Made by a program: the position numbers and the translations under genes
NCBI GenBank assembly: GCA_042852035.1
Contig: BAAFHK010000001.1
Location: forward strand, 120,001-152,000
Reading direction: 5' to 3'
Length of the DNA: 32,000 bases
Source of the DNA: Candidatus Saccharimonadota bacterium
GTDB taxonomy: Bacteria > Patescibacteriota > Gracilibacteria > BD1-5 > UBA2023
In this document: in pieces, positions 6,533 through 25,045 of the stretch
Numbering within the stretch: position 1 is the stretch's first letter
Layout: every line of letters begins with the position of its first letter
The notes under the pieces: model-generated
Told to the model about the DNA's origin: nothing
Seen by the model: the letters and a program-made list of their open reading frames with translations, nothing else
The model's database searches: none

Positions 6533-7912
6533 TTATTCTATTACCTTAAAGAGCTCATCGAGACTTGTTTTTCCTTGCATGGCTTTGAGTATCCCATCTT
6601 CGCGCATGAGCATGAGGTCTTCTTTTCGAGCGAGTTCGATGATTTCTTTTGGGCTTCAGCCCTTTCTGATAAGGGCTCGAATATTATCCGAAAAGAATAA
6701 AACCTCATAAACTCCGATGCGTCACTTATACCCACTCATTCCACAGAGCTCACATCATTTCCCTTTGTAGAGAGTGTATCCATCGCGTTTTGCTGCAACT
6801 TCAGCCATACCGATATCCTTAAGCATCCACTCAATGATATCCATTTCTGATCTATCAGCATCGTATCGTTCGCTACAGTGTGGACAGAGACGACGCACGA
6901 GCCGTTGGGCGATGATGACATCGAGACCTGATGCGAGGATATAGGAAGGTACACCCATATTCATGAGGCGTTCTATAGTTTCTCAGGCGCTTTTGGTATG
7001 GAGGGTAGAGAGGACGAGGTGCCCAGTCATCGCCGCCTGCATCGCGATAGTTGCCGAATCAAGATCGCGGATTTCACCGATCATGATAACGTCAGGATCT
7101 TGGCGCATTAGGGCTTTTAACCCAGTAGAATAAAGATAATTTTTCTTCTCATCGACTTCACTCTGAACGATTCCTGGCAGTTCATACTCGATTGGGTCTT
7201 CGAGGGTGATAATTTTTCGATCTGGAGTATTCAGGGTCGTCATCATCGAATAAAGGGTCGTCGTCTTTCCTGATCCAGTTGGTCAGGTCACGAGGATAGT
7301 TCCATTTTTCTTCTTTAGAGCTTTATCGATCTGTCGCTTACTCGTCCACATGAATCCGAGATCACCTACGGTTGGTATAGATTTTGTTGAATCCAAGATA
7401 CGACAAACAGCATTTTCCCCATATCGCACTGGAAGAGTTGAGACACGTACGTCGATACGATCTCCATTATCAGTAATTCGATATTTCCCATCCTGAGGAA
7501 CTTCTGTGATATTGAGTTTGAGATTGGATTTGTATTTGAGTCGTTCGAGGAGGAGTTTATATTCTGATTTTTCGAGAGTAGTAATAGTGACGAGTTCTCC
7601 ATCGATACGGATACGGATGGCAATATTGGTATCAGATGTATCATAGTGGATATCTGAAGTTCATAATCCGAGAGCTCACTTGGTCATCAATGTAAGCGCC
7701 GCTTCGCTATCTTGGAGCCTGAGTTTTTCGTGAAGCGCATCAGCAAGAGGTCGGAAACGATCATTATCCATGTGACTATGAACTTTTTCTTTTGCCTCTT
7801 CGATTTTATCGTGAAACTCCTCCTCACTTGTGATGGTGGGATTTATTTTTGATTCAGCTTGATTTATTTTCTCAGAATGCTCTGATTCTTCCTCTTTTTG
7901 AGTATCTGGCAT
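6533..7912 (-). CDS. pilB: type IV pilus / type II secretion assembly ATPase (PilB/GspE family), short N-terminus
   Basis: Triplet check finds no TAA/TAG over 460 codons. It joins track ORFs 7676-7912, 6983-7246 and 6755-6964. Walker A is [12 protein letters not shown], with the first Gly encoded by TGA at 7283-7285. Other motifs: [22 protein letters not shown], and the tetracysteine CPHC...CELCG. Confidence 0.92.
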
Positions 7913-8003
7913 GCATACATCATAGCAGAAAGGTTCTCATTTTGCAAAATTGGATGCTTTCCTTTTTTTGGAAATATAGTATACTTCTTCTATGGGTTTT
8001 ATT

Positions 8004-8306
8004 ATGCGAAATGAGTCATTTACGTGTGAACACTGTGGGAGGTTAGTAGATATCCATCCAACTTGATCCGCTCGAAATCATTGTCCAGTCTGTCTTTATT
8101 CAAAACATGTTGATGATGTGAAGCCGTGAGATCGGCTTTCAAGCTGTCATGGGCTCATGAGTCCAGTCGGGATGGATTATCGTAAAGGAAAATGAGATAT
8201 GATTCGCCATCAGTGTCAAAAATGTGGGAAAGAAATGCTCAATAAAGTCGCACCAGATGATGATGTGATAGGATTTGTGAGAGAAAAAAATAAGAAAATT
8301 CTCTAA
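8004..8306 (+). CDS. RNHCP domain-containing zinc-ribbon protein
   Basis: ATG 8004 to TAA 8304-8306, 100 aa. Literal RNHCP motif (GSARNHCPVCLYSKH) plus CEHCG and CQKCG pairs. 3 in-frame TGA. Confidence 0.8.
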
Positions 8307-8313
8307 AAGAAAA

Positions 8314-9267
8314 ATGGAACGAAATTTTCTAGAATCATTCTCGAAGTATATAAAAAAAGATGATATTCTCATTCTCGCTGTGAGCGGGGGAGTCGATAGT
8401 ATGGCTATGGTTCATATGATTCTTTGTACTCATGACAAGGAGAAAATTATTATTGCTCACTTTGACCATTCACTCAGGGGGGATGAGTCAGATGGTGACA
8501 GGATATTTGTTGAGAACTATTGTCGAACAAGGGGGATTTTATTTGTATGAGAAAAACTTGATATATCTCAGCTTGCCCGAGAAGAGAAGATGAGTATAGA
8601 ACATGCTGCTCGAAAGTATCGTTATGAGTTCCTTTTTCGTATCGCACGAGAAAAAAATGCAGGATATCTTCTAACCGCTCATCATAGCGATGACCGAATT
8701 GAAACTGCTATTTTTAATCTCATACGATGATCGAAGCTCGCATGAATCCATGCACTTTCAGGACTCGAACATCGAGCATGAATTACTCTATTTCGACCCC
8801 TGATTGGGATAACAAAGGCTGATATTCTTGAGTATGCAGAGAAACATGGTATCGAATTTCGTGAGGATTCTACAAACAAAGACACCGAGTATCAGAGAAA
8901 TCATCTGCGAATTTCAGTGCTTCCTGAATTCGAAAAAATCAATCCTGAATATCGAAAGGTAATATCAACCTTTATCGAATATACCGAAGAACTCAAGAAT
9001 TGGATAGATCAGGAGGTGGAGAAATTTTTTGGAGAGAAAAGCGAGTTTTCTGCTCTAGAATTTGCTCACAAAACATCATTTTTCCAGAAAGAAGCAATCA
9101 GATACCTCTACGAGAAGACTCATCAAGGAACTATATGACTCTCAGAAGGCAATATTGACGAACTTATTCGATTTATCTGCACTGCCAATGGTGGGACGGA
9201 GAAGAGGATTGGTAAACTTATTTTAAAAAAGAAAACATCAACCATATACTATGGAGTTGATTTATAA
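8314..9267 (+). CDS. tilS: tRNA(Ile)-lysidine synthase
   Basis: ATG 8314 to TAA 9265-9267, 317 aa. PP-loop LAVSGGVDSMA, AHHSDDRIETAIFNLIRGS, LFRPLIGITKADI. 5 in-frame TGA. Confidence 0.92.
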
Positions 9268-10148: not shown

Positions 10149-10580
10149 ATGGCTAAAAAACCAACAAAAGTTGTAAAACTTCAACTTAAGGCTGGACAAG
10201 CAAACCCAGCACCTCCAGTTGGTACCGCTCTCGGTCCTACTGGTATCCAGATTGCAGAATTTTGTAAACAGTTCAACGACAAAACTAAGGACCAAATGGG
10301 AAAAATTCTCCCTACGGTTATCAATATCTACGAAGATCGAAGTTTTGACTTCTATACGAAGCAACCTCCGATGACTTGGTGGATTAAAGATGCGCTTAAG
10401 CTCGCATCTGGATCAAAAGAGGCTCATAAGACAAAAGTCGGACACCTCACTATGGCACAACTCAAGACCATTGCTGAAGGAAAAATGCCAGATCTCAATG
10501 CCAATGATCTCGATCATGCTATGTCTATCGTAGCAGGTTCTGCTCGTTCTATGGGTATCACTTCGGATCTCAAGAAATAA
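10149..10580 (+). CDS. rplK: 50S ribosomal protein L11
   Basis: [33 protein letters not shown]... to TAA at 10578-10580. The start is taken at the internal ATG of track ORF 10128-10580. No TGA codons. Confidence 0.96.
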
Positions 10581-10614: not shown

Positions 10615-10689
10615 GGCGCTATCGTCTAGTGGTTAGGACACGGGATTCTCATTCCCGGAACCGGAGTTCGATTCTCCGTAGCGCTACCA
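10615..10689 (+). tRNA. tRNA-Glu (anticodon CUC), CCA encoded
   Basis: Hand-folded cloverleaf. Acceptor GGCGCTA/TAGCGCT (G1-U72 wobble). D arm GTCT-AGTGGTTA-GGAC, with the TCGTCTAG..GGACAC context typical of bacterial tRNA-Glu. Anticodon arm CGGGA-TTCTCAT-TCCCG. T arm CGGAG-TTCGATT-CTCCG. Discriminator A followed by CCA. Confidence 0.9.
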
Positions 10690-10704
10690 TGTAAAAATCA
10701 AATT

Positions 10705-10728
10705 TCCTCACGAAAGTGAGGATTTTTT
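10705..10728 (+). terminator. intrinsic terminator after the tRNA
   Basis: Hairpin tcctcac-gaaa-gtgagga followed by tttttt. Confidence 0.8.
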
Positions 10729-10733
10729 AATAC

Positions 10734-10761
10734 AAAAAAAGGGGCCCCATGGGGGCCCCTG
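10734..10761 (-). terminator. intrinsic terminator of the 586-aa gene
   Basis: On the minus strand: aggggccccc-atg-gggcccc followed by ttttttt, starting 8 nt after the TGA stop. Confidence 0.8.
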
Positions 10762-10768
10762 AGCGAGC

Positions 10769-12529
10769 TCAGCGCTTCATGTCTTGGAGCAGACGAGCCC
10801 GTTGTTCGGGCGTCATCGCTTTCAGACGAGCATCGAGCTCGGCGCCATCAGCGCGCTGTATGCCATCCTTGCGGACGGCATCAGCGCGCGCAGCTGCACC
10901 ATCTTCTCGGGCCGTGCTTGCGAGCACTGGGATCGAGTCGTTCGAGAACGACTCGATATCCACAGTGCCGCTGCCCGTGTCCGAGTAGCCGATGGTGACG
11001 ATATCACCCTTCTCGGTGATAGGGAGGGTCACAGAGACCCCTGAGGTTGCCACGAAGATATGCTTCGGGCGGCCTTCTAGCCGGAAGTAGAAGAAGGTGT
11101 TGCCGCCACGGACGTCTTGTCCGAAGCGTTCCACCTTGCCACTGAACTTCTCCCGCTGTTTGAGCGGGTCGGCTACGGCCGAATTGCCTCGCGAGGCGAG
11201 CTTGCTCCGGTAGTTCCGGAGTGCTTCTTGTTTGGTGTCACCCACGCCGACGATTTCATAGTTCTCTACTGAGACCATCGCCACGGCCTTCACGAGTCCT
11301 GCGTTGTCCTTGAGGGGACCAACGTAGGTCGGTTTGCCGGCTATGTTGTAGATGATGAAGTTCGTCGCGTCGTACTTCATTGCCTGCGTAGCGCCTTCGG
11401 CCGATCTCTCGGCTTCACCTTCGGTCGCTCCCGCGACGTCATAGCGCTTGATAGCCTTGGTACGGCTGTCGATGAGGAGGAACGCCGTGATGCTGTTGTC
11501 CTTCCCCGTGGATGTCAGGCCCGAGTACCAGTAGGCTCGACCATCGTTGCCGTAGACGAGCCTGAGTTCCTTGTTCGAGGTCTTCAGGATTTCGTCATGA
11601 GCCCAGACAGCGTTCCACCAGCCGTGGATGTATTCACCCCACCAGTTGATTTGGTCATGGATGAAGTCTTCCGGCTGGATACGGTCCACCCATGCTGGTG
11701 CGTCTTCGATCGAGTACTCTTTCAGGGTGCCCGTCTCGACGTCGACAAGGATGATTCCAGTAGCGTCCTCTCCCGAGGCGCCAACCTTCTTCTGGTAGAT
11801 GGTGGCCACATAGTAGGGCCGGCCTTCGTCGTCGATCTCGAACGTGTAGTCCGTCACGCCACGGGTGGCGTAGCCGTTCATGTAGATGTGACGTTCGAGG
11901 TCTTGCCCGAAGTAGGCGTTCGGCTGGTAGCGAATATGGATCGGCTTGTCGCCAATCTTCTCGACCAGTCGGACGTTGTCCGGGTTCGTCGCCGAGACCA
12001 TGACATAACCAGGAGTACCTTCGCTCCCGAACTGGGACCACTTGCGGAACCCAGTATGCATGAGTGGAGCCACCCAGTAGAGGTCATCTTTCACCCGCTG
12101 GATGTGCATGTCACCGAGTACGACACGCGAGCCGAGACCAGCATCGCTGCCGAGTTGCTTGCTGCCAAGCTTCACGGCCATGTCGTGATCGACGATTCGC
12201 AGGTGGGCGGGATCCACCGGTGCAATGTCTTGGGTGAAGACCGATGTCTTGATATCACCCAGAAGGCTCCGGTAGTTGCCCGATTGGTGGATGCCCCAGG
12301 TGCTCACGGGCAGGATCACCACGAACATGACGAGTCCCAGGATCACTGGTGCTGCGCGCATGAGCGTGGCGCGATTGGCTTCATTCCTGCCAGCGAGCTG
12401 ACGGAAGATGAGCGGGATGCCGGCTGAGACGACCATGAGGATCCACAGGTCCGACCACCAGAAGTTGATGGTTGGAAGCGTCAGATAGGTCAGTAAAGCA
12501 CCTATTACAGCGATTGCGATATAGGTCAT
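10769..12529 (-). CDS. membrane-anchored protein of unknown function (about 3 N-terminal TM helices plus a ~500-aa soluble domain)
   Basis: 586-aa uninterrupted standard-code ORF. Strong SD (aaaggagaaggtcgcATG). GC-rich codon third positions. Hydrophobic segments IAIAVIGALLTYLTL, LWILMVVSAGIPLIF, APVILGLVMFVVILPV. Trp/Tyr-rich central region and an Ala/Arg/Asp-rich tail. TGA stop followed by its own terminator. Family not recognised. Confidence 0.85.
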   Translation of the reverse strand: MTYIAIAVIGALLTYLTLPTINFWWSDLWILMVVSAGIPLIFRQLAGRNEANRATLMRAAPVILGLVMFVVILPVSTWGIHQSGNYRSLLGDIKTSVFTQDIAPVDPAHLRIVDHDMAVKLGSKQLGSDAGLGSRVVLGDMHIQRVKDDLYWVAPLMHTGFRKWSQFGSEGTPGYVMVSATNPDNVRLVEKIGDKPIHIRYQPNAYFGQDLERHIYMNGYATRGVTDYTFEIDDEGRPYYVATIYQKKVGASGEDATGIILVDVETGTLKEYSIEDAPAWVDRIQPEDFIHDQINWWGEYIHGWWNAVWAHDEILKTSNKELRLVYGNDGRAYWYSGLTSTGKDNSITAFLLIDSRTKAIKRYDVAGATEGEAERSAEGATQAMKYDATNFIIYNIAGKPTYVGPLKDNAGLVKAVAMVSVENYEIVGVGDTKQEALRNYRSKLASRGNSAVADPLKQREKFSGKVERFGQDVRGGNTFFYFRLEGRPKHIFVATSGVSVTLPITEKGDIVTIGYSDTGSGTVDIESFSNDSIPVLASTAREDGAAARADAVRKDGIQRADGAELDARLKAMTPEQRARLLQDMKR

Positions 12530-12568
12530 GCGACCTTCTCCTTTCCTTCGAGAAGAATGTTAAAGAAT

Positions 12569-12581
12569 TGCTGTTACAGCA
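12569..12581. promoter_or_regulatory. perfect 13-nt palindrome TGCTGT-T-ACAGCA in the divergent intergenic region (candidate operator)
   Basis: Read directly from the sequence. It lies 40-52 nt upstream of the ATG of the 586-aa gene. Confidence 0.3.
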
Positions 12582-12634
12582 GCTTTTAAATTATACATTA
12601 ATTATTAGTTATAGCAAATAATCACATCATAATA

Positions 12635-12662
12635 TTGACAATATCCTGAAACTCTATACTAT
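12635..12662 (+). promoter_or_regulatory. candidate sigma70-type promoter for the 135-aa ORF
   Basis: TTGACA (12635-12640), a 16-nt spacer, then TACTAT (12657-12662). An overlapping TATACT sits at a 14-nt spacing. About 90 nt upstream of ATG 12753. Confidence 0.35.
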
Positions 12663-12752
12663 CATCGAACCCCTTGATGGGGCAAAAAGTGTCATGCTCG
12701 CCTGATCATCGAGTATGATGCACCTACAACGTGAGTTCCTGGAGATTTGTGA

Positions 12753-13160
12753 ATGGCAAACAGTAGTAATAAGCCCGCGGTCATTTTTGGCCACAATGTT
12801 GGTCGTGCTGAGGAGGACCTGAACATCCAGCAAGACCTCGGACGTCGGCGATTCGTGCCGGTCGCGTTCCGCGTCGGAACCCACAAGAACGAAGCGGGTA
12901 CCAATACGTCCACGCTGAAGTTATTGATTTGGGCAACCCGAAAAGGGCTCGGAAACAAGATGACGCTCGATGGCTTCCTCCCGTACTTTGCGGAGTATTG
13001 GAATGAGACCAATAACGGCACTCGCGCACCTTCCTGGTCGAGTCATCGCAACTTGCATGAACTTTGGCGTCTGTGGCGGCGTAATCCCAAGACCCTCGTG
13101 TCCGATGTTTTTGAGCTTTACGGCTCGGCATTTGCCCCGAAGGAGTCTGCCACTACCTGA
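12753..13160 (+). CDS. hypothetical 135-aa protein (island gene 2)
   Basis: ATG preceded by ggag 8 nt upstream. The composition is protein-like, unlike the Arg/Ser/Cys-rich shadow ORFs on the opposite strand. TGA stop, with a terminator about 100 nt downstream. No family recognised. Confidence 0.6.
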   Translation: MANSSNKPAVIFGHNVGRAEEDLNIQQDLGRRRFVPVAFRVGTHKNEAGTNTSTLKLLIWATRKGLGNKMTLDGFLPYFAEYWNETNNGTRAPSWSSHRNLHELWRLWRRNPKTLVSDVFELYGSAFAPKESATT

Positions 13161-13256
13161 CCAAGCTCACGAATACACAAACAAAATAGTTCCTGTGTAG
13201 AAATCAACCACTGATACTGGGTTTACCGATCCAGTTGTCACGTTCAGATCGATTTC

Positions 13257-13286
13257 AACCCCCTTACCCGGGGGTTTTCGTTTTTT
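13257..13286 (+). terminator. intrinsic terminator at the right edge of the island
   Basis: aaccccc-ttaccc-gggggtt followed by ttcgtttttt. Confidence 0.7.
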
Positions 13287-13308
13287 ATGAGGAATATTTC
13301 AATTTAAC

Positions 13309-13336
13309 TTGAGTCAGGTCGCTATCTCTATATACT
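13309..13336 (+). promoter_or_regulatory. candidate promoter of the desaturase gene
   Basis: TTGAGT, a 16-nt spacer, then TATACT. It ends 22 nt before ATG 13359. Confidence 0.4.
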
Positions 13337-13358
13337 TAATTAGAGTAACCTATCCTGT

Positions 13359-14351
13359 ATGGAAACCAATAATAAACAAAAATATAGTGAGCTATTCGGA
13401 GAATTAAGAAATCTCCTTATCGAAAAAAAACTTAACGGAACGGATTGGAAGTATGGTATTATAATGCTTACCATAGCAGGATTTCTCTATGCCATTGGGA
13501 TTTATTTTATGCCTCTATTCGGTCCGGTTCTCACAGTTTTCTATTTTTCTCTTCTCTTTGTTGAGATGGGGTATATTTCTCATGATATCATTCATAATCA
13601 ATACTTTCAGAGCGTGCGCATGAATCGAGCGATAGCCATGATCTATGCGAATATGGGTATCGGACTTTCATCATCCTGGTGGATTGAGAAGCACAATGTT
13701 GGGCACCATAATTCGACCAATTCTAATATTCATGATACGGATATTAGAGATTATGATGAGATTTTTACAGGAAGAGTGGGGAAGCATCCATTTTTTCATA
13801 AACACAAAAAAGTACTCTTTTGGATTGCTCCGATATTTCTCTATTTCAATCTTCTGATTGAGTCGTATAAATTCCTTTTCCGTAAAAAATATTTTCCTGA
13901 AATGTTGATGAATCTACTGTTCCTCCTTTTTCCAACATTATTGATAATCCAATTTGGTGCTATCATTTGAATTTTTGTATTTCTTGCTATAGGAGTTATT
14001 GTCGGAATGATTCTTGGTTATGTATTTATGGTGAACCATATTGGACTCGAGATTATCGATGGTCTTCATATAAGAGAATATGCATGGATTGATCTCCAGA
14101 CTCGCACCTCACGTAATATCTTATGAACACGTCTTACGACTGAGATTTTTTGAGGTCTTGATAAACAGATTGAACACCACCTCTTCCCACAGATTTCGAG
14201 GAGAAAGATTAGGAAGGTTGCAAAGGTGGTAAAGGAGTTTTGTATAGCAAATAATCTTCCATATCATGAAGTTTCCTTTTTTGAGGGACTTTCAGAAATA
14301 GCGCATACCCTAAAAACAGGAGAGACGCTCAATATTGGCAAATCCTTATAG
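13359..14351 (+). CDS. membrane fatty-acid desaturase (three His-box family)
   Basis: ATG 13359 to TAG 14349-14351, 330 aa with 3 in-frame TGA. His boxes HDIIH, HNVGHH and QIEHHLFP, with hydrophobic stretches between them. Confidence 0.88.
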
Positions 14352-15401
14352 CTTTGTTTTCTTTCAAAATGCTCCAAGTTGATTCGCGGCTTTTAGTGAG
14401 GTGACAGTTTCTCATTCTTCAACGAATGTTTGTACTTGCTTTTCTTCATAGAGTCATGCTTCTCGACCAAATCCATCACCATCAGCAACTGAAAGAGTAT
14501 CATATTCAGTAAGATCGAGAGAGAAAGAACGTATAAATTCAAATGTATTTACTCATTCATCATGGAATGTATGAATGCCTCATTCCTCGATTCCTTGGGG
14601 TAGAAATATTTTAGTTAGCCCAGTAGCAAAAACTGTTTTAACATTTTTTCCAGGTCACAAAGTCAATGTTTTAATAGTGAGGGGAGCTTCGAGAATCTCG
14701 AGAACCTCTTTGAGTCATACATTTCCTTCAGATTTTATTCGTTTACTGAGGTATCTCGTTCGAGCTAGTTGTACGAGTAATATTGCTTTTACTATTGGGA
14801 TGCCACCACCTTCAAGATAGGGAACAATGATTTCCGGCTTCCCATTTTTCCGCCCAATAAGGACGATTTCTTCAAGTGATTCCTCATATGCGGTGAGTCA
14901 AGGGGATTTATCAGCTCTTCCAGCAGGGAGTGTATATTTGCCTGCATCAGTCGGAGCTCAAGCATCTCGACGCAGAAGGGGAATTCTTTTTCCATCTTTT
15001 GTTTCTATGCTTAGAGCTGCCACTCAAGAAAAAAGTATACCCTCCTTTGATTTATTTCGTAGCTCCCCGACAGTGGCTATTTTTGGTGCATCAACTTTAT
15101 CATTGAGTCGCACGAAGGAATCTTCGGTGATGACGACATATGTTCCATCAGGATTTTGCTCAATAGAGCTCGCTTTATAAAAAACTTTATCATAGAGGGG
15201 ATGACTTTCTTGGAGGAGTGAAGCATTTGCTCATTCTCTTGTAAGTGAAAGGAGGTGTGCGTAGGCTACAAGTTCTTCTCCAGTTGATTCTCCCTCGATA
15301 ACTTGAGTTACCCCATCTTTCAGTTGAGCTTGAAGTTTTTCAAGGACTCATTCTTGAGTCTGGGTCGGTTGTACGACCCCTGTTTCATCAACTTTTACCA
15401 T
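14346..15401 (-). CDS. hypothetical protein (351 aa), possibly with a degenerate Nudix-like box
   Basis: Triplet check finds no TAA/TAG over 352 codons. Starts MVKVDETGVVQP. LPAGRADKSPGLTAYEESLEEIVLIG loosely resembles the Nudix box G-x5-E-x7-REUxEE. It overlaps the desaturase stop by 6 nt in convergent orientation. Confidence 0.68.
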
Positions 15402-15518
15402 AAGAAAGAGAGTAATATATGATTTATATTATAATTATTATTTAAATAGAGTCAAAATATTAACCTCAATTCTATATTGAATGAAATCAGAGTTTTGCAA
15501 TCCCTTAGAGAATCAATA

Positions 15519-15546
15519 TTGACTTTATAACTTAAGTTTCTATAAT
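15519..15546 (+). promoter_or_regulatory. near-consensus sigma70 promoter
   Basis: TTGACT (15519-15524), a 16-nt spacer, then TATAAT (15541-15546). It ends 24 nt before ATG 15571. Confidence 0.55.
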
Positions 15547-15570
15547 TATGAATTATTCTTATCCTGATCC

Positions 15571-15942
15571 ATGACTGCTACAAAAAGCCCTGTATTATTT
15601 GTTTCAATTTGAGATGCTCCACTTTGAGTAAGGTGAAGGTTATCCCAGTGACAATCGAGTCTGAATCTAGGTGTTAGTTCTCCTCAGCAGCTTTCAGCTA
15701 TGATAAAAGCCCATGTTTACGAATCAGTTACTATAATGAATCCATATGACTACCAAGTTGATTGAGGTTGAGTAATATCTTGAGTTTTTGCAGAGGTTTT
15801 TTGAGATATATATTTTGATCCGAAAACATGTAACTTTGCCAATAATCTTCCACAAACACTATTAACGGGTTCAAAAATTGTAGTTATTGATACGCGGTGA
15901 CATGTATCTTTGTTGATTATTAATCAAAAAATCGAACGCTAA
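15571..15942 (+). CDS. small hypothetical protein (123 aa) with unusually many TGA-encoded glycines
   Basis: This is the only frame on either strand without TAA/TAG across the otherwise gene-less 15402-15938 gap. 9 of 12 Gly codons are TGA. An alternative upstream ATG exists at 15481. TAA at 15940-15942. Confidence 0.45.
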
Positions 15943-17084
15943 TTCTTTTTATACCAAAATCGACACTCTTCACTTCCGTTGAGGAGTTTTTTATTGGCAA
16001 GACCATGTCGAATATCTACGGGGAAAGTAGTGATAAACCCTCATCCATATTCTCGTATTTCCTTGATCAGTTTGGTATATATTTCATGGAGTGATTCGCT
16101 TTCGAGACGTTTCCCATATGGAGGATTGGTTACGATAGTGTGATTATTATTTGTCGTAAGGTATTCTGTGCATGAAAAATTTATATCACCCGCAACGCCA
16201 GCACGTTCGGCATTTCTCTTGGCGATATCAATCATATTTTTATCTAGATCAGAAGCAGAAATGGTGTAACTTCCACTCGGGTAGATTTTGCTTTTAAGAT
16301 TTTCTTTTGCTTCCAAAAAAAGTGTTCGATTGTGAATTGGGAGGCTTTCGATACGGAAGTGCCTCATGAGTCCTGGGGCAATATTTCGTGCCATCATGGC
16401 AGCTTCGATAGCGATGGTTCCGCTTCAGCAAAATGGATCGAGCATCGGTTCTCGAAATCTCCAACCCGAAAAAGCAATCAGAGCTGCTGCAAGGGATTCT
16501 TTAATAGGAGCTTCTCATGATTCGGCTCTATAGCCTCGCTTATGGAGTGGGTCTCCAGTTATATCAAGAAGAATATGAGCAACATCATCGATAAGAAGGA
16601 TGAGGATATGAACTTCTACTGCATGGGCGTTATCGGGGGTATGGAGAGTTGAGTATATGGCTTTTTGCCCGACCGACTGAATTGTTGGGATACTTGTAAG
16701 AGTTGATCTCGTTGAGCTCGCCTCGATTACGATGACTTCTTTTCCGCTGAGGTAATCCCCCCATGTGATACTTGCGAGTACATCATGAAGCGTGTCAAAA
16801 TCGGTAATCTTTTCTTTCGCGATTTCGATATAGACCCGATTAGAAAATCGACTTCCAATAAGGAGTTTATAGAGAGTTTCGAGATTTCATTCTCCAAAAA
16901 CAAGTCGATCTTGACCGCTTGTTTGGCTGAGTCCTAGTCTCTCACTTTCTCTTCGTACGAGTGACTCAAGTCCCGATTGGCAGGTGAGAGTTATATGGAT
17001 ATGTTCTTTATCGAAAGGGGGGAGTTCGATTTTTTTGACTTCTTTGACGGGTGTTGCCGATTTTTTGTGCGCTATGATTTTCAT
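15939..17084 (-). CDS. THUMP-domain class I SAM-dependent RNA methyltransferase (RlmL/RlmK-like)
   Basis: Triplet check finds no TAA/TAG over 382 codons. It joins track ORFs 16887-17111 and 16041-16397. Motifs: LHKRGYR, DPFCGSGTIAIEAA and TNPPYGKR. Confidence 0.88.
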
Positions 17085-17168
17085 GTCTCGAGTATAGAGA
17101 GAAAGGCTCAAATGTAAAAGAATTCATAGAAATATTGACCAATTAAAAATTTTATATATTTTCATACT

Positions 17169-17669
17169 ATGAATCATCCAAAACCAATCCCATGAACTGA
17201 GTCTCTGGATTATAAATGTGCTACGTGTGAGTATGTTGCTCGATGAGCAAACGGTCGTGCATTTTGCATTCTTAATCAAAGTGTTCCAGGCGGGAATATT
17301 CCGAATGATATTTGAGTCCAAAGGCTTGAGGCGGGCATAGAGTCACGTCCTATCATTATTAGAAGGATTCTTGAATGAATGACTCATCCAGGTCAAGAAA
17401 ATGCCTGCAACTATCATAGTGAAAAGGTAAGAGATGAGGAAATGCAAGGGGTAGAACTCACACTTCTTGACTGGAAACAGAAACCAGTAGATGAGTGGGG
17501 ATTATCCGTACGAGTAACAAACGCTTTAAAAGTGGAACAGGTTACCTTAGAGGATCTTATCCAAATGGGTGCTTCAGGGTTTAGAACTCGATTGCGACGA
17601 ATGTGAAAGAAAAGTGAGGTGGAAGTAAAATTTTTTTTAAAAAGGATATGAGTAACCTGGAAAGAATAA
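17169..17669 (+). CDS. stand-alone RNA polymerase alpha-CTD-like (helix-hairpin-helix) protein with N-terminal Cys-rich segment
   Basis: ATG 17169 to TAA 17667-17669, 166 aa. WGLSVRVTNALKVEQVTLEDLIQMGASGFRTRLRRMGKKSEVEVKFFLKRIG parallels the RpoA CTD pattern (LSVRs.NCLK...DL....L......GKKSL.EIK..L...G). N-terminal part contains YKCATCEY...FC. Confidence 0.62.
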
Positions 17670-24382: not shown

Positions 24383-25045
24383 TTATCTCTTTTCACACCA
24401 CATATACGTCCAAGCCGCAACAACAGCACCAAGAAGTGGGGCTACCCAGAAAAGCCACAGTTGACTCCATGCATCACCGCCTGCCAATAGGGCTGGTCCA
24501 AGTGATCGAGCAGGATTGACGCTCGTACCAGTTACTGGGATAAATACGATATGTATCACTGCAAGCGTAAGACCGATAACGAGACCTGCAAGAGGCCCAG
24601 CACCTGACTTATCTCCAGTGGAAGCGAGTACCACTCGAACAAAAATCATAGTAGCAAGAAATTCAGCGATAAAAGCCTGAAGCGTACTAAAATCTCCTTG
24701 GATTACATTTTGCCCGAGTTTATCACTCATAAATGCTCCTGTGGCGATATAAGAAAGGACAGCAGCACCGATAATGGCACCAGCACTTTGCGCGACGATA
24801 TACCAGAGTCCTTCACTCCATTTCATTCGACCTGATACACACATACCGACCGTAACGGCAGGGTTTATATGGCAACCAGAAACATGACCAATAGTATATG
24901 CCATAGCTACCACAGCAAGACCAAATGCGAGAGCTATATGGAGATTTCCAGCAGTCATCCCAGCAAGTACAGCGGAGCCACAACCCAGAAGCACAAGCAC
25001 CATAGTGCCCATAGCCTCTGCAGCATACTTTTTCATATGTTGCAT
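24383..25045 (-). CDS. aqpZ: aquaporin Z / MIP-family channel
   Basis: Uninterrupted 220-aa ORF ending in TAA. Two NPA boxes (HINPAVT, SVNPARS). The start could instead be ATG 25036 (MKKYAAEA...). Confidence 0.95.
   Translation of the reverse strand: MQHMKKYAAEAMGTMVLVLLGCGSAVLAGMTAGNLHIALAFGLAVVAMAYTIGHVSGCHINPAVTVGMCVSGRMKWSEGLWYIVAQSAGAIIGAAVLSYIATGAFMSDKLGQNVIQGDFSTLQAFIAEFLATMIFVRVVLASTGDKSGAGPLAGLVIGLTLAVIHIVFIPVTGTSVNPARSLGPALLAGGDAWSQLWLFWVAPLLGAVVAAWTYMWCEKR

Follow-up and report, generated by a model that had tools for sequence, protein, structure and literature searches.

The window analyzed here is a 32,000-nucleotide stretch of the metagenome-assembled genome (MAG) HHAS10 (GenBank assembly GCA_042852035.1, contig BAAFHK010000001.1, positions 120,001 to 152,000 of the forward strand), which belongs to class JAEDAM01 (formerly Gracilibacteria), family UBA2023, and whose host organism translates UGA as glycine. 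It contains two neighboring open reading frames (ORFs) that have no in-frame TGA and that terminate at TGA, designated ORF586 (10769-12529, minus strand, stop codon at 10769-10771) and ORF135 (12753-13160, plus strand, stop codon at 13158-13160). On balance, we consider it probable that these genes represent an old, tolerated acquisition by an ancestor shared with several UGA=Gly lineages, and not a recent jump across the boundary between genetic codes, as the original prediction had proposed.

The premise that the host reads UGA as Gly was confirmed. HHAS10 is an episymbiont of Zoogloea in activated sludge, as shown by fluorescence in situ hybridization, and Codetta assigns UGA=Gly to its MAG (PMC11393006). 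Reading the window with translation table 11 yields short broken ORFs throughout, except between 10.7 and 13.2 kb. When TGA is read as sense, ORFs of 100 amino acids or more account for 83 kb of DNA instead of 17 kb, and GlmS, Xth, the ATPase of a type II secretion system (T2SS), TilS, L11, a desaturase, MurC, MiaA and DnaX are restored. In GlmS, five of six TGA codons are aligned with Gly residues of the E. coli protein, and the Walker A motif of the T2SS ATPase reads LVTxPTGSGKT (where x is the TGA position). For 25 host genes (8209 codons), TGA makes up 189 of 619 Gly codons (31%) and the GC content at third codon positions (GC3) is 0.318. In-frame TGA is therefore frequent in conserved host genes and matches Gly in homologs, as in translation table 25 (hereafter code 25). 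Neither a release factor 2 gene nor a gene for tRNA-Gly(UCA) is present within the 32-kb window, whose only tRNA is tRNA-Glu(CUC). Note that use of TGA as a Gly codon is uneven among host genes, because TGA is found at none of the 10 Gly codons of rplK (10149-10580, stop TAA) and at none of the 26 in an aquaporin gene of the MIP family (24383-25045, minus strand, stop TAA, host-like GC3 of 0.33; P about 7e-5 at host usage). The TGA-free state is thus not restricted to ORF586 and ORF135, and highly expressed host genes may avoid TGA as a Gly codon.

Against this background both genes stand out. All 53 Gly codons of ORF586 and all 10 of ORF135 are GGN, as had been noted, and the probability of finding no TGA among 63 Gly codons is 1e-10 at host usage. 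The further claim that no other genes in the window end at TGA holds among TGA-free ORFs, and can be judged for those only. GC3 is 0.73 in ORF586 and 0.64 in ORF135. The GC content of 1-kb windows over 10.5-12.5 kb is 56-58%, compared with about 38% elsewhere, and codon preferences differ between the island and the host (AAG, 81% versus 29%; ATC, 82% versus 30%), such that base composition and codon usage are both atypical in the manner of genomic islands. The 223-nt intergenic region between the two genes has 37% GC, which is similar to the value for host intergenic DNA (34%), so that only the coding sequence has an excess of GC. As originally proposed, a foreign origin is supported by GC3, by codon usage, by a position 3' of a tRNA gene, and by absence from the syntenic relatives designated L039 and L040.

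Orthologs of ORF586 are found in four other UGA=Gly contexts, namely L038 (P0001, 98% amino acid identity), L001 (P0002, 84%), L002-L004 (P0003, 70%) and L005/L006 (P0004, 59%; GCA_031539165.1). Every other relative has at most 50% identity. The flanks of these copies are themselves UGA=Gly: in-frame TGAs number 4-19 in host genes of L001, and the sequences KIExLSLGADDY and NMPVQxTAAD are found in the response regulator of L002 and in PolA of L005, respectively. ORF586 copies are richer in GC than their flanks (0.56, 0.57 and 0.50 versus 0.39, 0.41 and 0.44). None of the five copies compared (window, L038, L001, L002 and L005) has an internal TGA and all have a TGA stop codon, and the three sequenced orthologs of ORF135 (window, L013 and L002) likewise have no internal TGA. 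In a neighbor-joining tree, the code-25 copies of ORF586 form one clade, L005(L002(L001,window)). The sister of this clade is a pair of sequences, one of which has an examined contig (L007) that is 23% GC and standard-code. A related standard-code copy (L008) resides in a contig of 26% GC, and GC3 for sister sequences of the L007/L008 type is 0.13-0.16. The tree, from which a donor clade had been expected, therefore gives a code-25 clade with an AT-rich sister group and names no donor.

Synonymous divergence (dS) was calculated by the method of Nei and Gojobori (NG86) with Jukes-Cantor (JC) correction. Comparison of the ORF586 sequences of the window and L001 gives a dS of 0.71 with a dN/dS ratio (omega) of 0.125. 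For the window and L002 the values are 1.1 and 0.19, and dS is saturated in the comparison with L005. Values of omega from 0.13 to 0.19 indicate that ORF586 is under purifying selection, judging from coding sequence comparisons. The window and L038 are 97.3% identical in nucleotide sequence from the tRNA through ORF586 to the ORF135 leader, and 39 of their 50 differences in coding sequence (CDS) are located at third codon positions; purifying selection has therefore acted within a UGA=Gly population. In L001 and L002 the cassette is syntenic on both sides, where flanking host genes have dS values of 0.67-1.01 and the cassette has a comparable, if slightly higher, dS of 1.32. This pattern fits co-inheritance since the two lineages split. 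The proposal that the genes are recent arrivals that have not yet adapted is contradicted by this single clade from several UGA=Gly contexts, whose dS ranges from 0.7 to saturation.

The lengths of the read-through extensions had been predicted correctly. If UGA is read as Gly, ORF586 gains 14 residues (GARSGAPMGPLFLY) before TAA at 10727-10729 (minus strand), and ORF135 gains 49 codons before TAA at 13305-13307 (plus strand). The junctions predicted with code 25 are ...DMKR-G-ARSGAPMGPLFLY for ORF586 and ...SATT-G-PSSRIH... for ORF135. The 14-codon extension of ORF586 is a terminator palindrome read in frame. This intrinsic terminator (10730-10760, minus strand) consists of a 9-bp G+C stem (10740-10760) followed by a T-run, and it is conserved in L001, L002 and L038. 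For ORF135, the NCBI protein HHAS10_01280 (GAB0174249.1, 184 amino acids, “Candidatus Altimarinota bacterium”) is exactly the read-through product. Its first 135 residues are ORF135 (100% identity), and its 49-residue tail corresponds to the 3' untranslated region (UTR) and terminator in frame. Similar over-extensions were observed in other assemblies, specifically in P0002 (607 amino acids), P0248, and P0122 (161 amino acids, with a 5' extension through the leader).

Homologs do end where the window has TGA, as had been anticipated. The standard-code ORF586 homolog of L007 terminates with TAA (...LLESVKK*) at the same residue as the window (...LLQDMKR-TGA), and that of L008 terminates with TAA one residue later (...LLESVKKK*). 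In L013, the ORF135 ortholog has ACC TAA at the codon where the window has ACC TGA, and the orthologs in L002 and L003 stop at TGA. The comparison of stop states that was originally envisaged alongside that of dN/dS thus gives TGA in every code-25 copy, with the exception of the ORF135 ortholog of L013. Distances from the TGA to the next stop codon vary for ORF586 (14 codons in the window, 21 in L001, and >40 in L002 and L005), and a 2-nt loop indel in the terminator hairpin of L001 shifts the frame of its tail. TGA-terminated frames thus do exist in other code-25 genomes, which had been raised as a possible objection, but the sequences beyond them are variable in length, frame-shifted, and conserved only as hairpins. 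The idea that the tails are real coding sequence was rejected because of this variation in length, the frame shift in L001, the TAA in L013, and compensatory base-pair changes in the 3' regions. From these comparisons, the TGAs are the ancestral stop codons of both genes, and conservation of the DNA beyond them is that of RNA hairpins and not of codons.

We propose the following series of events. Both cassettes would have come from a GC-richer background in which TGA is used as a stop codon, and would have been acquired by an ancestor common to several UGA=Gly lineages, not recently by the HHAS10 strain. Since then they would have been subject to inheritance, local shuffling and slow AT-amelioration under purifying selection. 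Sense codons are the same in both codes and the proteins are therefore made correctly. At the ancestral TGA, which the code predicts would be read as Gly, the ribosome would enter the terminator or 3' UTR hairpins and either add 14 or 49 residues or run to the end of the transcript. Since the in-frame TAAs are located beyond both T-runs, at 10730-10739 and about 13284-13290, terminated transcripts should have no in-frame stop codon, except where a translating ribosome melts the terminator. A tolerated tail would explain why TGA mostly persists, with one ortholog having switched to TAA, and the scarcity of GGA in these GGC-rich genes would largely account for the lack of internal TGA. The conflict between codes is benign, in that it affects a C-terminal tail only. 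The original remark that expressibility across a code boundary would be unusual is overstated, as a move from the standard code to a code with UGA as sense, which is the permissive direction, keeps every sense codon, and only TGA-terminated genes gain a tail. Liu et al. 2023 argue likewise with regard to TGA-free phages of code-25 hosts.

To assess amelioration, third-position changes were polarized by parsimony, and changes from G or C to A or T (S>W) were counted versus the reverse (W>S). The S>W:W>S counts are 22:11 for the window lineage, 38:9 for the L001 lineage and 21:8 for the recent divergence of the window and L038. There is a net flux from GC to AT, and therefore GC3 of the cassettes is falling. 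Several observations nevertheless weigh against an old acquisition. W>S changes exceed the expectation from the host regime two- to threefold (P = 2e-4, 0.014 and 0.05). Under a two-state neutral model, GC3 would be no higher than 0.60 given the divergence of the L001 and L002 flanks, even when starting from 1.0, and the values observed for ORF586 (0.70-0.73) exceed this ceiling. ORF135 also retains a GC3 of 0.56-0.65 in three genomes with saturated host synonymous sites. A GC excess specific to the CDS (intergenic value of 0.37) is not predicted by neutral decay of an entire foreign fragment, and the AT-rich sister group (GC3 of 0.13-0.16) leaves the GC-rich phase without an identified source. 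The retention of the TGA stop in all ORF586 copies examined, with no gain of internal TGA, is a weak hint of constraint. Finally, dS calculated as above and polarization by parsimony are rough at such divergence. GC3 retention is not fully explained. It might be due to slow decay from a source that was very rich in GC, to replacement from a GC-rich pool, to codon selection, or to biased gene conversion at a hot spot of recombination.

The absence of internal TGA should be interpreted with caution. Over a similar divergence, 7-20% of the Gly sites conserved in host genes have switched between TGA and GGN, which makes the lack of gains in the cassettes mildly surprising. In the cassette genes, however, GGA, the one-step precursor of TGA, is rare (6-15 per copy), such that few gains are expected and the finding of zero gains is only weakly significant. 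For this reason, and because rplK and the aquaporin gene are also TGA-free, the lack of TGA was no longer taken as strong proof that the standard code constrains these genes.

An alternative that we regard as unlikely, yet serious enough to be weighed, is that selection keeps a gene pool dual-code compatible (TGA-free and GC-rich) because of its repeated movement between standard-code bacteria and episymbionts that read UGA as Gly. Such a pool would account for the lack of internal TGA in five ORF586 and three ORF135 copies despite TGA/GGN turnover in the host, for substitutions that are less AT-biased than those of the host, and for the different orders and orientations of the cassettes beside the same tRNA among genomes. 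Distant family members are present on IMG/VR contigs, and code-11-compatible phages (Liu et al. 2023, PMC10746230) provide a precedent. However, no copy with >50% identity was found in any standard-code genome, neither phage genes nor mobility genes are located nearby, PHROG gave no match, and the TGA absence that such selection would explain is weakly significant given the few gains expected. A backup stop is near for ORF586 of the window (14 codons), but is more distant for ORF135 (49 codons) and for the L002 and L005 copies of ORF586 (>40).

A related claim, which we would count as a long shot, is that the TGA-free, TGA-terminated and GC-rich state of the cassettes is actively maintained because they are also used under the standard code. 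If so, they might undergo repeated exchange with a GC-rich bacterial partner or its mobile elements, or might be expressed after their DNA or RNA has entered the partner cell. The tRNA-Glu hot spot and the structures conserved in the UTRs might be involved in such traffic. Standard-code use would explain the CDS-specific GC3 excess and its resistance to amelioration, the retained TGA stops and the lack of TGA gain.

We consider it quite improbable that there was a recent transfer, or several independent ones, from GC-rich standard-code donors such as a host of the Zoogloea type or its phage. In favor of this reading, Zoogloea, the bacterial partner, has GC-rich genomes, a GC3 of 0.70-0.73 in three lineages is above the value expected from neutral decay in permanent residents, every copy is TGA-free and TGA-terminated, and the site beside the tRNA is variable, with breaks in assemblies there. 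Against it, no donor with >50% identity to ORF586 was found among 5.8 billion proteins, even though bacterial hosts far outnumber episymbionts in such metagenomes. Scans of genome and metagenome contigs for a donor or close relative of ORF586 returned only relatives of 38-47% identity (Flavobacterium genomes and metagenome contigs), and a family profile search of viral (IMG/VR) contigs gave 14 loci of at most 41-42% identity, many on very large contigs, none of which is a donor. With standard-code homologs at 50% identity or less and the code-25 copies monophyletic, no donor was identified that is closer than the relatives of the recipient. The suggestion that the bacterial host or prey served as donor fares no better, as the closest sequences examined outside the clade (L007 and L008) are in standard-code contigs of 23-26% GC. 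Recent transfer is also difficult to reconcile with an AT-rich sister group, with the comparable flank dS of L001 and L002 (which have both flanks in common), with an AT-rich promoter and leader conserved along with the gene, with the failure to find either an integrase or att repeats, and with an ORF135 family that is tiny and found only in this kind of context.

Despite the sharp GC step and the frequent breaks of short-read contigs of relatives at the tRNA, an artefact in which a GC-rich segment from a co-binned or mis-assembled standard-code organism was incorporated can be dismissed, because host DNA is present on both sides of the segment inside one contig, a 750-kb NCBI contig of HHAS10 carries the gene, and the same junctions occur in independent assemblies from other samples (L038, 97.3% identity; L001, L002-L004 and L005/L006 in UGA=Gly contigs).

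The gene for tRNA-Glu(CUC) (10615-10689, plus strand, identified by ARAGORN and Rfam) is the conserved left anchor of a variable segment, and an RlmL-like gene (15939-17501, minus strand) is its right anchor. In the window, rplK and tRNA-Glu are followed by ORF586 in the opposite orientation, and then by ORF135 and a fatty-acid desaturase gene, both on the plus strand. The desaturase gene (13359-14351, plus strand, 3 TGAs) and a gene for a 361-amino-acid protein (14346-15428, minus strand, 12 TGAs) are host-coded genes in the variable segment. L001 has the same tail-to-tail junction of tRNA-Glu and ORF586 but lacks ORF135. L002 has a truncated tRNA-Glu-like 3' end, a hairpin, and then ORF135 and ORF586 in convergent orientation. 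L013 has ORF135 beside the same desaturase gene and the gene that follows it, without ORF586. L039 and L040 (L11 identity of 87%) keep the T2SS ATPase-tilS-rplK-tRNA-Glu order and the RlmL-like gene, but ORF586, ORF135, the desaturase gene and the 361-amino-acid gene are absent; the cargo between their anchors consists of a 101-amino-acid gene and glutaredoxin. L021 has AT-rich DNA of another kind after the tRNA, with no ORF586 in the 213 nt to the contig end. Five independent short-read contigs of related genomes (L016, L017, L022, L023 and L038) all terminate at or inside the 3' end of tRNA-Glu(CUC). Presence and absence thus vary among relatives with conserved flanks (L039/L040, L021 and L013), as is seen for genomic islands, and the differing layouts therefore identify the 3' flank of tRNA-Glu as a variable spot. 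The interval from tRNA-Glu to the RlmL-like gene (window 10690-15938) is a hot spot that varies among strains and has no integrase: no integrase-like ORF is present in or beside the segment, no direct repeat (att) of the tRNA 3' end was found, and no phage or mobility genes are near the cassettes.

The island is composed of two separate, self-contained cassettes, each with a sigma-70-type promoter, leader, Shine-Dalgarno sequence, CDS and intrinsic terminator. Its left edge is at about 10729/10730, past a host terminator hairpin that follows tRNA-Glu (10705-10722, plus strand, from a terminator scan). An equivalent hairpin follows the tRNA in L001, L021 and L039, whatever DNA comes next. Sub-threshold Rfam matches near 10700-10865 were rejected as merely terminator hairpins. 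The promoter and 5' leader of ORF586 (12530-12617, minus strand) include TTGCTA-16-TATAAT at 12617-12590, an AAGGAG Shine-Dalgarno sequence and a small hairpin (12569-12581) that covaries (GCTG/CAGC versus GGTG/CACC). This AT-rich region is conserved upstream of the L001, L002 and L038 copies and hence moves with the gene. The promoter and roughly 90-nt 5' leader of ORF135 (12635-12752, plus strand) have TTGACA-16-TACTAT at 12635-12662 and two conserved hairpins (17 pairs, 2 with compensatory changes). Downstream of ORF135 is a structured 3' region (13161-13295, plus strand) that contains the intrinsic terminator (13257-13276) and its T-run. For this region, RNAalifold predicts a multi-stem fold of 40 pairs from three distinct sequences, in which 10 pairs have double compensatory changes. 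These structured flanks of ORF135 may represent an undescribed regulatory RNA or a small RNA derived from the 3' UTR. No Rfam family was detected in the ORF135 UTRs at a permissive threshold. It was also observed that the UTRs of ORF135 (3' and 5' regions, respectively: window 13161-13295 and 12664-12752, plus strand; L013 1961-2108 and 1464-1561; L002 9700-9842 and 10221-10312, minus strand) are better conserved than its CDS, in genomes with saturated host synonymous sites.

Phages that lack in-frame TGA, that are predicted to infect code-25 Gracilibacteria and Absconditabacteria, and whose TGA stops are backed by a downstream stop codon, were described previously (Liu et al. 2023, mBio, PMC10746230). 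The authors concluded that either code gives viable products from such phages, with no fundamental barrier in this direction, and they found integrated prophages in code-25 genomes to be TGA-dense in all cases. Like these phages, the cassettes lack in-frame TGA in a UGA=Gly host. They differ in that they are two small chromosomal cassettes without phage genes, are fixed in several lineages, are much richer in GC than the host, and do not always have a backup stop nearby (14, 21, 49 or >40 codons). The prophages being TGA-dense, cassettes that are TGA-free after long-term integration contrast with that pattern. Searches for evidence of phage identity or standard-code residence gave no PHROG or PADLOC match, IMG/VR relatives of at most 41-42% identity, and no close standard-code carrier. 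The cassettes are thus a chromosomal, non-phage instance of dual-code compatibility that has been retained for long.

Genomic islands adjacent to tRNA genes are characterized by atypical GC content and codon usage, a site 3' of the tRNA, variable presence, and accessory genes of unknown function. The cassettes resemble such islands in composition, position, variability among close relatives and unassigned gene function. Unlike them, the cassettes lack an integrase, a repeat of the tRNA 3' end and mobility genes; the foreign DNA begins past the tRNA's own terminator and comprises only about 2.6 kb in two independent cassettes.

If correctly interpreted, the locus is a natural example of a stop-to-sense reassignment acting as a one-way filter, whereby genes written in the standard code can pass into a UGA=Gly genome and remain functional there for long, and the only visible scar of entry is a read-through tail. 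The stop states of the orthologs (TGA in most, TAA in one) would then represent a slow repair step caught in progress. Note that annotations made with code 25, such as the 184-amino-acid HHAS10_01280, carry spurious C-terminal tails derived from terminator or 3' UTR RNA. The only aspects that might lead to something new are the amelioration-resistant GC3 and the conserved UTR structures.

With regard to the gene products, ORF586 encodes a conserved membrane-anchored protein of unassigned function from a family of >2700 homologs that is distributed patchily over many phyla. No Pfam, NCBIfam, PADLOC or PHROG assignment was obtained. An AlphaFold2 model (pLDDT of 77.5) has N-terminal transmembrane helices, a beta-rich domain and a long C-terminal helix, and a Foldseek search of the PDB with this model gave no match above a TM-score of 0.23, such that no fold was assigned. 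ORF135 encodes a small protein that matches the HopJ family (PF08888) marginally (27.4 bits over residues 33-103, with a gathering cut-off of 27), and a precomputed PF08888 match exists for its ortholog in L002. We know of no function for the HopJ family. The ORF135 subfamily is tiny, with only 9 detectable relatives among 1.84 billion representatives, and there is no type III secretion context here.

Two observations were made on the surroundings of tRNA-Glu in other genomes. In L001 (11847-12334, minus strand), tRNA-Glu(CUC) belongs to a cluster of four tRNA genes (Gly-UCC, Ile-GAU, Pro-UGG and Glu-CUC) and is not located after rplK; the tRNA and cassette have therefore been relocated together relative to the rest of the genome. 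In L018, a more distant relative (L11 identity of 88%), cas1, cas2 and a gene of >1200 amino acids (6758-8671, minus strand, continuing to the locus end at 10466) are located about 4 kb downstream of rplK-tRNA-Glu, which points to a likely CRISPR-Cas locus in this general neighborhood.

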